Source of the DNA: a virus
Lineage: Duplodnaviria; Caudoviricetes
IMG/VR virus record: IMGVR_UViG_3300044846_006394
Coordinates: 1 to 52,638 of that record
Reading direction: 5' to 3' (one strand)
DNA length: 52,638 bases
Shown here: positions 1-52,638 of the stretch, in pieces
Numbering within the stretch: the stretch's first letter is position 1
Layout: each line of letters begins with the position of its first letter
Notes under the pieces: model-generated
The model's database searches: none
Told to the model about the DNA's origin: nothing
Seen by the model: the letters and a program-made list of their open reading frames with translations, nothing else
Made by a program: the position numbers and the translations under genes

Positions 1-933
1 ATGGCCGATGTGAAGCAGCAACTCCTCGATGGTCTTCAGACGCTGACCGCTTCGGTCGGTGACCTCGCGCAGTCGAGGCAGAACATCGTCGTGCGGGCGC
101 TCATCCTCCGCGACTCAGGCGTCCTCGCGGACCAGGCCGGTGTGGCCGACTATGACCGTGCGCGAATCGTCACACTGACTGCGGCGCAGTCGTTCGACAG
201 GGCGGTGGACAAGCTCCCGATGGACGCCCGCACCGCCGTGCAGAAGGCGTTCAACGACGCGGTCGCGAAGTACCCGGCGGTCAACATCTCCTCGACCTCG
301 TTCGCGGAGATCATCGAACTCGCGGTGCCGCCCGTTCCCGAGGCGCTCTTCTCCGCACAGAGCAGCGCGGCCATCGAAGCGGTGGTCGCCGTCGAGCAGG
401 CGCGGTACCCGAAGACCGGCCCCTCGGGCGCCGTGTCGGGCCTCGGCTTCGCGTTCTTCGGGCCGCTCATCACCGGCTGCGGTACGGCCATCGCGGCCAC
501 CGCTGCGGCGACCGCTGGCATCGGCGGCATCGTCGTCGCCATCGGATGCGTGGCGGCGGCGGTCTATCTCGCGGTCAAGGCGTATGACCTCGCGACCGCC
601 GGTATCGATGCGGTCGTTGACCTGTTCGCACAGGACGTTGCCGTGTCGCGCAACGAGACCGAGCGGGTCAAGGCGCTCACCGAGAACCTGACGCGGCTCG
701 ACGAACTGACGAAGGGCATGACCCCCGAGGAGAAGGCCGAGGTCATCAAGCAGTACACCGCGCAGGGGCTGAAGCAGCCGAAGGCCGACAGCGGCCTTCC
801 GTGGGGCGTCATCGCAACGGTCGCCGCCGGTGTCGGCCTCTACCTGTTTTGGCCCACGCTTGTCGGCAAGGCCCGCTCGTTCCGCGCTTCTCAGCCCGCC
901 GTGGCCGGTCTGCGGCGCCGTCGTCGGAGGTAG
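1..933 (+). CDS. Membrane protein, putative virion component
   Basis: Central Gly/Ala hydrophobic hairpin after VSGLG, C-terminal TM LPWGVIATVAAGVGLYLFW, ends VAGLRRRRRR. Confidence 0.75.
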   Translation: MADVKQQLLDGLQTLTASVGDLAQSRQNIVVRALILRDSGVLADQAGVADYDRARIVTLTAAQSFDRAVDKLPMDARTAVQKAFNDAVAKYPAVNISSTSFAEIIELAVPPVPEALFSAQSSAAIEAVVAVEQARYPKTGPSGAVSGLGFAFFGPLITGCGTAIAATAAATAGIGGIVVAIGCVAAAVYLAVKAYDLATAGIDAVVDLFAQDVAVSRNETERVKALTENLTRLDELTKGMTPEEKAEVIKQYTAQGLKQPKADSGLPWGVIATVAAGVGLYLFWPTLVGKARSFRASQPAVAGLRRRRRR

Positions 934-942
934 TCTCTGTCC

Positions 943-1269
943 ATGCTCACCGCACGACAGAACCTCATGGTCCGCTCGTCCCTTGCCATCGTGCAGAAGG
1001 TGGGGCCGTGGGGTCGCGGCGTCGAGGCTGACGGCGCGGGATACATCGAGGGCGCGAAGAACACAGGCTTCGACCAGGGCTTCGCCTGCGGCAACTGCGT
1101 TTTCATGCAGCCCGGACACCGCTGCGCCATCATCAAGGGGCGCATCGAGGAGGACGGCCTCTGCCGCCTCCATGTCATTCCGAACGACCGACTCACGCTC
1201 GGCGGTGCGCTGAGTGCGATGCCGAAGAACCGCATCGAGGCGACCATCGACGACGAGGAGAGTTCGTAA
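943..1269 (+). CDS. HiPIP-like 4-Cys iron-sulfur protein
   Basis: CGNCVF-x6-CAIIKGRIEEDGLC resembles the HiPIP Cys spacing and the GxI..G.C end. Confidence 0.55.
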   Translation: MLTARQNLMVRSSLAIVQKVGPWGRGVEADGAGYIEGAKNTGFDQGFACGNCVFMQPGHRCAIIKGRIEEDGLCRLHVIPNDRLTLGGALSAMPKNRIEATIDDEESS

Positions 1270-1316
1270 TGTCCAAGTACCAGCGGTTGGAGCGCAAGCT
1301 GAAGCGGGGCCGCTGA
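1269..1316 (+). CDS. 15-aa basic micro-ORF MSKYQRLERKLKRGR
   Basis: Overlaps both neighbours by one base (TAATG and TGATG). Confidence 0.45.
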   Translation: MSKYQRLERKLKRGR

Positions 1317-49829: not shown

Positions 49830-49914
49830 GCGCCGCAGCGTATCGCACAAAGTGAAGCGCCCCCACCTGGCAGGGTGGAGGCGCCTCTGAGGGCCGAGGG
49901 TGACCGCCTCGGAC

Positions 49915-50324
49915 CTACTCTGCCCAGCCCATGTGCCTCCAAGCGCACTCGGAAGTCTCGTTCGCGAAGCGGGCCATTTGCATCCGAAGCATTACCATCT
50001 CTTCGTTCATCTTGCTGCCAAGCCATGCGGCACGGCGCAGACCATCGCGAATGGCTTGGTCCCCGTCGAGGACGCCCGCGCTGTTACGGAGGTCGAGCGC
50101 GACAGCGTCGAGGAGCGTCACTCGGCCTCGACGGCCTTCGGAGCGAGCGACGCCAGCTGAGCCTTCAGCGACTCGTTCTCCGACTGGAGGACCGCGTTGG
50201 CGGTCAGCACGTCGAGGAACTGCTGGAGCGCACTGCCCACGCTGTTGAGCGCGGCGATGTGCTTGTTGATGACGATCTCGTTCTTCTCTCGGAGTTCCGC
50301 GACGGTGGTCTGCTGCTGGCTCAT
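49915..50324 (-). other. Two small coiled-coil genes (50118-50324, 49915-50121), possible fibre chaperones
   Basis: GTGA overlap; directly downstream of the fibre. Confidence 0.5.
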
Positions 50325-50424
50325 GGTCTTCTTCCCCTGTTCTCTGCGCGCTCGATTGCGCTCGCGTCGTTTAGCTCGAACCTCGAAGTTCCGCAAGAGG
50401 CTGCTCATGGGTGGGCACCGTAGC

Positions 50425-52638
50425 CTACGGCGTGAGTTCCTGCACGGACGTAACGAAGGTGTTTGCGAAGACGCCGATGGACGGAGTTGCACCCAGCGGC
50501 AATAGCTGCGCAGCGACGGTCATACTCACACCCGCGCCAACCAAGGACGTCACGAAGGAGATGGCAACGCTCGCAGCGAAGTTGTTGTTGAGTGAAACGG
50601 CAGACTGCTCGACTCCGTTGACGAGGATGCCCACGCTCACTTGTCCGCTGTAAGCGACAACCTGCCAGCACTCAAGCGTGACCTTGTATCGCCGCGCGCC
50701 GGAACTGTTGTTCGTCCATGTGATTGTCGTTTGCGGGATGGTGGTCGTCGTCGAGGTCGTGAACCCCGTCGTCGGCCCCATCGCGGCCTTGGAGAGCGGA
50801 TAGCTTCCCCACACAAGCTCGTTCGCGGCGCCAGTGGCGGTTGAACCCTCCAGCACCTTTCCGACTGCACCCGCACCGCTCCCCGTGATGGCAATCTTTC
50901 CGGGGTTCAGCGATGTCGCCATCGTGACCGGGCCGTACATCGTCGTCGGCTGCGTCCCTGAAGCCAAAGCACCGATGACAATTGAGGCAGTCTGAAAACC
51001 GTTTCCTCCGATGATGACCCTACCTTTGACTGCGCCCGCACCACCGTTGATTTCGACGTTTCCGCCTGTGCCGTCCGTTGTGTTAGCCGACCCACCTGCG
51101 ATGTAGGCGATACCGCCGCTTTGTCCCGCTGAATACCCGTACCCGCCAGTGAGAGCGAGGTTGCCCCCACGGGTTCCTGTCGTGCCCGCCCCACCTGCAC
51201 TAACCGAGACCGTTCCGCCTGTACCCCCTGCGGCAGCGATGTCTCCCACGATCAATAAGTCTTGGCTTCCGACAGAGCTTTGCTTAACGAGCTGTTCGTG
51301 GCTGTTGGACGTAAATAAAATCGCGTCCGTCGTCCCCGTGCTCGTTGTGTTGATGGTCAGCTGCCTGAACTGAGGTAAACTCGTCGTCGCGATGTTCTGC
51401 GGCAGCGTCAGCGTCAGCGCACCAGTTTGCGGAGTGCCTGTCGTACCTCCGACGAGAATCTGATTGGCCGTTCCCGTGAGGCTTGTGACGCCGCCGCCAC
51501 CTCCGCCTCCCGGCGCCCACGTCGGAACACCCGAGACAGTCGTGAGGACGTAGCCGTTGGTCCCGGCTGCGAGTTTGGACAGCACGGTGGGTGAAGAGGC
51601 GTAGAGCAGGTCTCCCGTAGCGTACGATGCTATGCCCGTGCCGCCATACAATGGATTAAGGGCGATGGCGAGACCCAGCACACCATTGACGTAGGTAGAT
51701 GCTCCAACCGCACCTAAGTAGACCTGATCAGTCAACGCCGTGCCAATATAGACTCTTCCGAACCGACCCGTCCCTCCGTTGGTAGACCCGCCTTGAACAT
51801 ATGCGTTCCCGCCATTTCCCGTTCCAGCTAGATACGAGTCACCTCCTCGCAGATATACGTCACCGCCAACCTGCGCTGTTTCGGCAGGCTCCCCGCCTTT
51901 AACCATGATGCTCCGACCGTAGGTGCTTTTGTATCCGGCTTGGAGGGTTACGGGATCATCCGAAGTGCTGTCCCCGATGTAAATGGTTGAGCTGGATCGT
52001 CCCTTCAGAATGTCCGAAACGACGGACGTTGTCGCAGTGAGCGTACTGAAGGTGGGAGAACTTCCGGTGCCGATGGACTGCGGAAGCGAAAGCATGACTG
52101 CGCCCGTCGAGGCCGACGCAATCACCTGATTGGGAGTACCCGCAATGCTTGTGACGCCTCCGCCACCGCCGCCTCCCGGCGCCCATGCTGGTACGCCGCC
52201 AGCCATCGTGAGGACGTAGCCGTTCGTTCCCGCTGCGAGCTTGGAAAGCGTGTTCGTGGCGGAGGCGTAGAGAAGGTCGCCGGTTGCGTAGGAACCGATT
52301 CCGGTGCCTCCCGAGGTCGCCGCCAGCGCCGTTGCCAAGGTCAGCGTCGAACCCGCCGTCAAACTGACGGCCCCGGTTAACCTTGTCGTTGTGGCTGAAG
52401 AACCGATGCGGACTATGCTGGTGTCGGCGCTGCTGCCGATAGAAACGACGCCCGCAGTGCCGGTGCCTGTCTTAGCGCCGCCATCAATATTGACGTCCCC
52501 ACCGTTTCCATTAAGCCCCCTGCCTGCGCCACCTAAAATGACTACAGTTCCGCCTGTGCCCCCACCCGACGCAAAGATGTTGTCACCACCTCTCAAAAAC
52601 ACCGTATTGCTGGTGCTGAGCGTCGAGTCCACCGGCTG
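50425..52638 (-). CDS. Gly/Thr-rich spike or fibre receptor-binding protein, 5'-truncated by the window edge
   Basis: Open to the edge; GGxVxIxGG repeats, duplicated GGTG..YATGDLLYAS module, beta-rich C-terminal head. Confidence 0.8.
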   Translation of the reverse strand, partial: QPVDSTLSTSNTVFLRGGDNIFASGGGTGGTVVILGGAGRGLNGNGGDVNIDGGAKTGTGTAGVVSIGSSADTSIVRIGSSATTTRLTGAVSLTAGSTLTLATALAATSGGTGIGSYATGDLLYASATNTLSKLAAGTNGYVLTMAGGVPAWAPGGGGGGGVTSIAGTPNQVIASASTGAVMLSLPQSIGTGSSPTFSTLTATTSVVSDILKGRSSSTIYIGDSTSDDPVTLQAGYKSTYGRSIMVKGGEPAETAQVGGDVYLRGGDSYLAGTGNGGNAYVQGGSTNGGTGRFGRVYIGTALTDQVYLGAVGASTYVNGVLGLAIALNPLYGGTGIASYATGDLLYASSPTVLSKLAAGTNGYVLTTVSGVPTWAPGGGGGGGVTSLTGTANQILVGGTTGTPQTGALTLTLPQNIATTSLPQFRQLTINTTSTGTTDAILFTSNSHEQLVKQSSVGSQDLLIVGDIAAAGGTGGTVSVSAGGAGTTGTRGGNLALTGGYGYSAGQSGGIAYIAGGSANTTDGTGGNVEINGGAGAVKGRVIIGGNGFQTASIVIGALASGTQPTTMYGPVTMATSLNPGKIAITGSGAGAVGKVLEGSTATGAANELVWGSYPLSKAAMGPTTGFTTSTTTTIPQTTITWTNNSSGARRYKVTLECWQVVAYSGQVSVGILVNGVEQSAVSLNNNFAASVAISFVTSLVGAGVSMTVAAQLLPLGATPSIGVFANTFVTSVQELTP

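Follow-up and report, generated by a model that had tools for sequence, protein, structure and literature searches.

Portogloboviridae virions have two single-jelly-roll capsid proteins, a lipid layer on the inside, sub-capsomer proteins that go with this layer, and a core of nucleoprotein, and no ATPase is found among the assignable genes; Sulfolobus polyhedral virus 1 (SPV1) in particular has hyperthermophilic archaeal hosts, a genome of 20 kb, no polymerase and a non-lytic life style (PMC8459092). PMC8812541 likewise describes SPV1 as lacking a packaging ATPase, gives helvetiaviruses two single-jelly-roll capsid proteins and an FtsK-HerA ATPase, and derives them, as the probable course of events, from a portoglobovirus-like ancestor by duplication of the capsid gene and capture of the ATPase. 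SPV1 is proposed there to resemble the helvetiavirus ancestor before these two gains, and the prokaryotic double-jelly-roll viruses are given genomes below 20 kb. According to PMC12714852, the Helvetiavirae were moved to a new realm, Singelaviria, in 2025. Here we analyze a 52,638-bp stretch of viral DNA, the IMG/VR record IMGVR_UViG_3300044846_006394 at its full length (the window), which probably is most of a genome from an undescribed lineage of temperate double-stranded DNA viruses whose genomes map as circles of about 52–86 kb and would join a tailless single-jelly-roll shell and a virion rich in membrane proteins to a phage-type replication module.

By comparison, helvetiavirus genomes are roughly 17–31 kb and have the ATPase gene adjoining the capsid genes, and we know of no helvetiavirus with PolA; the barrels of the two helvetiavirus major capsid proteins stand vertical to the shell. 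Double-jelly-roll phages replicate with a protein-primed PolB or a rolling-circle Rep, and the known tailless, membrane-containing viruses of bacteria are small and rely on an FtsK-type packaging ATPase. The limited collection of literature that we searched holds no description of a lineage such as the present one. A preliminary description of the window had proposed that a PolA/Sak4/SNF2 module and a tailless virion module come together in a lineage not yet described. This part is supported; the placing of the packaging ATPase in that description is not, and its label 'Varidnaviria-like' no longer fits.

The record is a single contig with 61–71% guanine plus cytosine (GC) across its length, tagged as a provirus in IMG/VR and with a CheckV completeness estimate of 70%. 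Genes, called on the basis of third-position GC, form a plus-strand block at 1–21845, a minus-strand block at 21961–45717 that is followed by a primase gene on the plus strand, and a third block, again on the minus strand, at 47466–52638. The frame of a 735-aa fibre at the right end runs off the window, so the record is truncated there. The preliminary description looked to the rest of the genome outside the window; the record ends with the window, and what remains can be examined only through relatives.

Three relatives in IMG/VR (G001–G003) were found with profiles of two virion proteins, and all are syntenic with the window. Two of them, G001 (85,791 bp) and G003 (75,406 bp), carry terminal repeats of 127 bp and have a completeness rating of 100%; the third, G002, is linear with 57,349 bp. 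The four genomes have in common, on the replication side, the integrase, a Rad50-like ATPase with two small neighbours, PolA, Sak4, a 201-aa protein next to Sak4, the primase, the PD-(D/E)XK nuclease and the SNF2 helicase; this set includes neither the methylase nor the ParB-like gene. On the virion side the genes kept in all four are 7420–7845, 8902–9594, 9679–10260, 10270–10905, 16263–16472, 17478–17750 and 20310–20579.

Because the replication module is of the tailed-phage kind and the automatic labels of related clusters read Uroviricota, the lineage might be taken for ordinary tailed phages (Caudoviricetes) with hallmark genes too divergent for the profiles used. However, five hallmark Pfam families, searched in six frames, gave no match in any of three records, complete G001 among them: Terminase_6N, TerL_ATPase and Terminase_3 for the large terminase, PF04860 (Phage_portal, the one portal family searched in this way) and PF05065 (Phage_capsid). 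Similarly, phrog_2, which we take to be the large terminase family, is absent from all four records, and PHROG scans of all large open reading frames (ORFs) in the window and G001 returned neither a large terminase nor, at convincing E-values, any structural family. For the HK97 capsid there is no capsid PHROG match, with structure prediction limited to two proteins. The ten largest virion-side ORFs of the window contain no terminase, portal or HK97 capsid at E ≤ 0.01 (PHROGs, Pfam), and match no structural family beyond marginal tape-measure matches on transmembrane (TM) or coiled-coil proteins, plus a GP88 domain. In G001, the 20 ORFs of at least 300 aa without a scanned counterpart in the window (all scanned with PHROGs, ten also with Pfam) encode ParB, proteins that look like fibres, a MoxR-type ATPase paired with a VWA-like protein, and products of no recognised kind.

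Marginal matches to PHROGs for the portal, the tape measure and the small terminase could still be held in favour of a tailed phage, but they fall on TM, coiled-coil and VWA proteins and are better explained otherwise. For example, the sole portal trace is phrog_104 (E 0.0093) on the VWA-like protein of G001, which matches another family at 4e-26. Conservation points the same way: for none of the eight virion-side window proteins of at least 300 aa does conservation in the relatives extend over the length of the protein, the opposite of how portal and terminase genes behave, no virion-side ORF of at least 400 aa is conserved between relatives, and there is no gene of tape-measure size. We consider a tailed phage very improbable. 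The lack of terminase, portal and HK97 capsid motifs reported in the preliminary description thus holds for the window, and the complete genomes G001 and G003, where such genes would have counted against a tailless virion, show none either.

The candidates for the shell are three consecutive genes for predicted jelly-roll proteins of 230, 193 and 211 aa, the latter two called MCP1 and MCP2 (for major capsid protein). The 230-aa protein is the best-conserved virion gene, with 61–77% identity across the relatives, and MCP2 has 55–65% identity in G001–G003. MCP1 and MCP2 share 28% identity (E 2e-11) and are paralogues. For a relation between MCP1 and the 230-aa protein hhalign gives a probability of 0.1%, so this idea was rejected and the two are placed in separate families. 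MCP1 and MCP2 are also separate genes that do not form one frame in two of the four genomes, and programmed read-through from MCP1 to MCP2 was rejected since the common frame exists in only two of the four. Homologues of the 230-aa protein and of MCP1 form 97 and 86 clusters, none with a Pfam domain and the named ones all 'hypothetical protein', and tblastn against 50,697 phage records gave no match for either protein. Exhaustive HMMER searches with MCP2 gave 57 representatives; P0131, among them, is a repeat-protein false positive.

The arrangement of these genes recurs. A relative of the 230-aa protein is encoded in 35 metagenome loci, and in 24 of the 27 with room downstream the next gene is of the MCP1/MCP2 family. 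The full trio is present in the closer relatives, and five more distant loci (L042–L044, L050, L051) have a single MCP1/MCP2-family gene, even at permissive thresholds. In L053 it is the 230-aa family that is present in two tandem copies. Finally P0102, a distant relative of 380 aa, is a tandem fusion of two MCP2-family domains (hhalign probabilities 99.7 and 99.4). Taken together, the single-gene loci, the trio loci and P0102 imply that the capsid family occurs single, duplicated and fused. Note that P0102 is one predicted protein from a database and could be an artefact of assembly or gene calling; a search for longer relatives gave no further fused forms, which is weak evidence.

AlphaFold2 models were made for two window proteins, and both are β-sandwiches, with pLDDT values of 71.8 and 76.8 from alignments of 47 and 52 sequences. 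The top structural match for both is to the jelly rolls of SPV1, whose capsid proteins of this fold are VP4 and VP10, with Helvetiavirae proteins lower in the lists; no sequence similarity was found between SPV1 and the capsid candidates. The nearest named clusters in a structure atlas are the capsid families of PM2 P2 and PRD1 P3, at scores of 0.76–0.78 that serve as a lead only. Judging by these models, the capsid candidates would be separate single jelly rolls and not the double-jelly-roll protein of Varidnaviria in the strict sense. With the Helvetiavirae now in Singelaviria, 'Varidnaviria-like' is no longer the right label.

Jelly rolls are, however, common in lectins, carbohydrate-binding modules and fibres, several of which score like the viral structural matches. 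The trio could accordingly be surface, adhesion or carbohydrate-binding proteins, either of a pleomorphic or vesicle-like virus or of a non-viral, integrative plasmid-like element, and the very high load of membrane proteins, the lack of a packaging motor and the ParB and MoxR/VWA pair of G001 would all suit such an entity. We find this rather unlikely, because conservation within the module peaks at the trio, which is also tightly syntenic in 24 of the 27 loci, as expected of a shell; because the large ORFs scanned include no relaxase, coupling protein or VirB4-like ATPase; because the 230-aa protein has no tblastn match in 72,556 plasmids; and because lysis-type genes are present (SLT, spanin-like and small TM proteins).

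In the complete genome G001 no FtsK/HerA-type ATPase is found above threshold (G003 was outside that search), and the packaging ATPase that the preliminary description had placed outside the window is thus not borne out. FtsK_SpoIIIE (PF01580) gave only P-loop matches of 12–18 bits, against a cut-off of 24 bits, and in all three records searched they lie in the Rad50/SMC-like ATPase. This protein has an N-terminal Walker A motif, a long Ala-rich middle with CxxC, and a C-terminal LSGAE followed by a Walker B-like stretch, a pattern that we take to be of the Rad50/SbcC type; these motifs lead us to regard it as an ATPase of recombination. Beside this core gene we recognise no partner of the Mre11/SbcD type.

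One could nevertheless propose a virus of Helvetiavirae or PRD1 style in which DNA is pumped by an ATPase that has escaped recognition, either a divergent A32/FtsK-like enzyme or the Rad50/SMC-like protein in a co-opted role. The latter is core in all four genomes and carries the only FtsK_SpoIIIE signal, and 52–86 kb seems large for passive co-assembly, which weighs against the motor-less virion that we prefer. On the other hand, its gene sits in the PolA operon and not in the virion module, whereas helvetiaviruses have their ATPase gene beside the capsid genes; it has the look of Rad50/SbcC and matches AAA_23 and SMC_N; and a canonical Walker A motif occurs in only two other credible ORFs of the window, Sak4 and a nucleotidyltransferase-like (NTase-like) protein. 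We judge an unrecognised packaging ATPase to be unlikely.

The tailless, motor-less reading leads to the following scheme. The host would be some high-GC freshwater bacterium. The shell would be icosahedral, made of the 230-aa protein and one or two second-family jelly-roll proteins (the family being duplicated in this clade), and beneath it would lie a layer rich in virus-encoded membrane proteins around the DNA, which small and strongly basic proteins would condense into a core. For entry and exit the virus would use its fibres and anchored hydrolases that act on the cell wall (SLT, SGNH). Since no motor ATPase is detectable, co-assembly of the DNA with the basic proteins, in the manner of SPV1, would be more likely than pumping by way of a portal. 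The phage-type PolA/Sak4/SNF2/primase/integrase module would carry out replication, recombination and integration.

Like SPV1, the lineage has small single-jelly-roll candidates, of two distinct kinds within the module, numerous predicted membrane proteins, small basic or DNA-binding proteins and no detected packaging ATPase. Unlike SPV1, it has genomes of 52.6–85.8 kb that encode PolA, primase, helicases and an integrase, and it appears to be bacterial, judging by the SLT domain, the spanin-like protein and the autotransporter-type repeats in G001. It differs from the Helvetiavirae (P23-77 of the Matshushitaviridae; HCIV-1, HHIV-2 and SH1 of the Sphaerolipoviridae and Simuloviridae) in that no FtsK-HerA ATPase was found. 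A tailless, membrane-containing virion with a vertical jelly-roll capsid, here proposed, would be shared with Tectiviridae, Corticoviridae and Autolykiviridae, of the Bamfordvirae/Abadenavirae, whereas the separate single-jelly-roll genes (193 and 211 aa) and the lack of a detected A32-like ATPase set it apart from double-jelly-roll viruses; the distant relative P0102 is the only fused, two-domain form that resembles a double jelly roll. The PolA/Sak4/SNF2 replication module is like that of temperate tailed phages, but the head, packaging and tail gene set of such phages was not found. No known family can take in the lineage, since each has one or more defining features that it does not show; on our reading, it nevertheless works like SPV1 and the helvetiaviruses.

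We tentatively suggest a more specific position, which for now is a possibility worth pursuing: a first bacterial sister lineage of the portoglobovirus/helvetiavirus stock, large (52–86 kb), temperate, membrane-containing and motor-less, with shells of single jelly rolls, with single, duplicated and fused states of the capsid family, and perhaps with cleavage at a motif [LM]xGLG. If true, the lineage would merit at least a new class and would be a living model of jelly-roll capsid evolution. At three to four times the size of the known tailless, membrane-containing viruses of bacteria, with a family A polymerase encoded by the virus and no motor detected, it would widen what jelly-roll virions are believed able to carry and would give bacteria a counterpart of archaeal SPV1. 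Moreover, a capsid family that is single, duplicated and fused within one lineage makes the account of how helvetiaviruses arose directly testable. Automatic pipelines appear to file such contigs under tailed phages, and if so the group is miscounted in viromes.

The pentapeptide motif [LM]xGLG is over-represented in virion-side proteins, with 7 sites against 0.87 expected (none of 1000 shuffles reaches 7), compared with 1 against 0.41 on the replication side. In G001 there are 5 against 0.98 expected, a number reached in 6 of 1000 shuffles. Four of the seven window sites are within the first 45 residues, after Arg-rich stretches, and near-matching sites lie close to the N-termini of some positional counterparts in G001; carriers include 3240–4103, 7849–8166, 17770–19122, 20586–21473 and 49095–49529. 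The motif presumably fits the adenovirus-protease consensus (M/L/I)XGX-G. No clan-CE enzyme turned up as a protease for maturation: six-frame searches of three records with Peptidase_C48 and Peptidase_C5 gave no match at E ≤ 10. Several virion-side proteins end in tails of the G[LM]RRRR type.

Table 1. Positions of the genes and elements of the window, from left to right (pI, isoelectric point).
Feature	Position	Strand	Details
Left-end genes	1..4722	+	TM protein, Cys-rich 108-aa protein, NTase-like, spanin-like, small TM, basic 287-aa protein
Second SLT-like protein and SGNH/GDSL hydrolase with C-terminal anchor	5384..6763	+	
Two very basic small proteins	7420..8166	+	7420–7845 pI 11.1; 7849–8166 pI 11.9
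Gly/Ala-rich protein, two weakly hydrophobic segments	8272..8832	+	directly upstream of capsid trio
230-aa predicted jelly-roll protein	8902..9594	+	candidate major capsid protein
MCP1, 193-aa predicted jelly-roll protein	9679..10260	+	paralogue of MCP2
MCP2, 211-aa predicted jelly-roll protein	10270..10905	+	paralogue of MCP1
Four proteins	10924..15474	+	first acidic; other three with C-terminal or internal hydrophobic anchors
Lytic transglycosylase (SLT)	15478..16263	+	PF01464 E 2.2e-10; hydrophobic residues 11–29
Small virion-side proteins including thioredoxin and 69-aa protein	16263..17750	+	both core genes
GP88-family Cys-rich protein	17770–19122	+	PF17338 E 1.4e-18
Basic 392-aa protein	within 17770..21845	+	pI/hydropathy
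Two-TM protein	20310–20579	+	kept in all four genomes
Anchored 295-aa protein	20586–21473	+	hydropathy
Mini-protein	21609–21845	+	pI 12.0
tRNA-like element	21855–21911	+	Rfam tRNA 45.1 bits
MarR-like small gene	lysogeny corner 21855–23462	-	MarR_2 E 4.3e-4, below cut-off
Tyrosine integrase	22377–23462	-	Pfam 1.5e-13; phrog_1 1.2e-20
SMC/Rad50-like ATPase	28802–30490	-	Pfam AAA_23 and SMC_N
ParB-like protein	within 28802–47296 (replication module)		
C5 methylase	31290–32357	minus-strand block	Pfam/PHROGs
UDG-exo-PolA fusion, 887 aa	32430–35093	-	Pfam/PHROGs
Sak4	37039–37932	minus-strand block	Pfam/PHROGs
PD-(D/E)XK nuclease	42010–42900	minus-strand block	Pfam/PHROGs
SNF2 helicase	44065–45717	minus-strand block	Pfam/PHROGs
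DUF3987 primase/helicase	45875–47296	+	Pfam/PHROGs
Second virion-side block	47466..52638	-	Arg-rich and TM proteins, 735-aa Gly-rich fibre
Gly-rich repeat fibre, 735 aa	50425–52632	-	no Pfam or PHROG match

The other virion-side genes (Table 1) agree with the gene content given in the preliminary description: many TM-anchored proteins, basic core-like proteins (three small ones), an anchored transglycosylase and a fibre. Specifically, a 19-residue window with a Kyte-Doolittle hydropathy of at least 1.6 is found in 16 of 41 virion-side proteins as compared with 4 of 30 on the replication side, and one further protein with such a window lies in the 1333–2670 reading frame. Among the basic proteins, 7420–7845 is kept in all four genomes at 50–72% identity and matches phrog_14910 (3.4e-14), with DUF5872 below threshold; from their composition it and 7849–8166 are candidate DNA-condensing core proteins. 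The Gly/Ala-rich protein next to the trio has 37–44% identity in G001 and G002 and is overlapped by an RNA-library contig. The four proteins downstream of the trio have no Pfam or PHROG family and are poorly conserved among the relatives; the anchored ones are candidate membrane or sub-capsomer proteins. In the 5384–6763 region, with a hydrophobic segment at residues 213–231, SLT (E 0.0021) and Lipase_GDSL_2 (E 1.4e-6) are both under the Pfam curated cut-offs.

The thioredoxin (17478–17750, plus strand; PF00085 E 5.8e-5, exactly at the Pfam cut-off) is encoded inside the virion module of all four genomes, near the Cys-rich GP88-family protein and 7420–7845. Because this conserved gene adjoins Cys-rich proteins, disulfide chemistry in virion assembly is suggested. 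At the left end, the long 1333–2670 frame is Arg-rich in its 5′ part, and there it is overlapped by the NTase-like ORF 1214–1849 (DUF2204 E 1.2e-4). The start of the actual gene in the long frame is probably close to 1894, and the product would be spanin-like, with TM and coiled-coil segments; the left-end TM and coiled-coil protein has a weak match to Rz-like spanins (1.2e-3). At the other end, GC drops to 0.608 over 50001–52638, the region of the fibre gene. The fibre has only a 50-residue stretch in common with G001 (64% identity), and its block has the opposite orientation in G001, which fits a swappable host-recognition module.

Sequences of the lineage recur in lake water. At least half of the sampled words of 8000–17999 are present in 23 of the 24 listed runs, all lake-water metagenomes dated 2020 to 2024, of which four are flagged as possible sources and which may represent few sampling campaigns; material for enrichment therefore probably exists. 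Contigs from three lake-water runs match the window without differences over long pieces. Contigs from one RNA library, of a strain 90–99% alike, cover 8047–9490, 9691–10253, 17569–17726 and parts of 10851–11883, which hints only weakly at transcription of the capsid cluster, given that DNA can occur in RNA libraries. Most of 1–20000 is uncovered by these contigs; such gaps are uninformative, and contig depth cannot rank genes. Profile scans with MCP1 and the 230-aa protein revealed no prophage copy in species-representative genomes, and megablast of both window halves against the phage collection gave only a 222-bp methylase match.

On the replication side, PolA, Sak4, the PD-(D/E)XK nuclease and SNF2, all named in the preliminary description, are confirmed by Pfam and PHROGs, and these together with DUF3987, the C5 methylase and the integrase match phage families. 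A single-stranded DNA-binding protein, also named there, is not: the likely candidate, 36287–36892, matched nothing. A temperate life style, as proposed in the same description, is probable, with the integrase kept in all four genomes compared. The PolA polypeptide combines a uracil-DNA-glycosylase-superfamily (UDG) domain, a 3′–5′ exonuclease and a family A polymerase, and has at most 25.7% identity to any PolA among the 50,697 phage records. Beside the integrase, the ORFs within about 1.5 kb (23463–25019) are all Arg-rich and resemble readings in an alternative frame, and none has a coding composition that convinces; this stretch might serve in regulation or attachment.

The tRNA-like element lies where the virion block gives way to the integrase corner, with acceptor, D and T arms and an anticodon arm reduced from 18 model positions to 3 bases. 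It was missed by ARAGORN, and no counterpart was reported in 20–40 kb stretches of G001, G002 and G003; it might be what is left of an attachment site, or it might mimic a tRNA. Conversely, a tRNA-Gly called by ARAGORN at 28949–29047 (99 nt) lies inside the ATPase ORF, is unreported by Rfam and was treated as spurious. In G001, directly downstream of the ParB-like gene, there is a Type-P5 twister ribozyme match on the minus strand at 46669–46731 (16669–16731 of locus L009), with 38.9 bits against an Rfam gathering threshold of 37.6.

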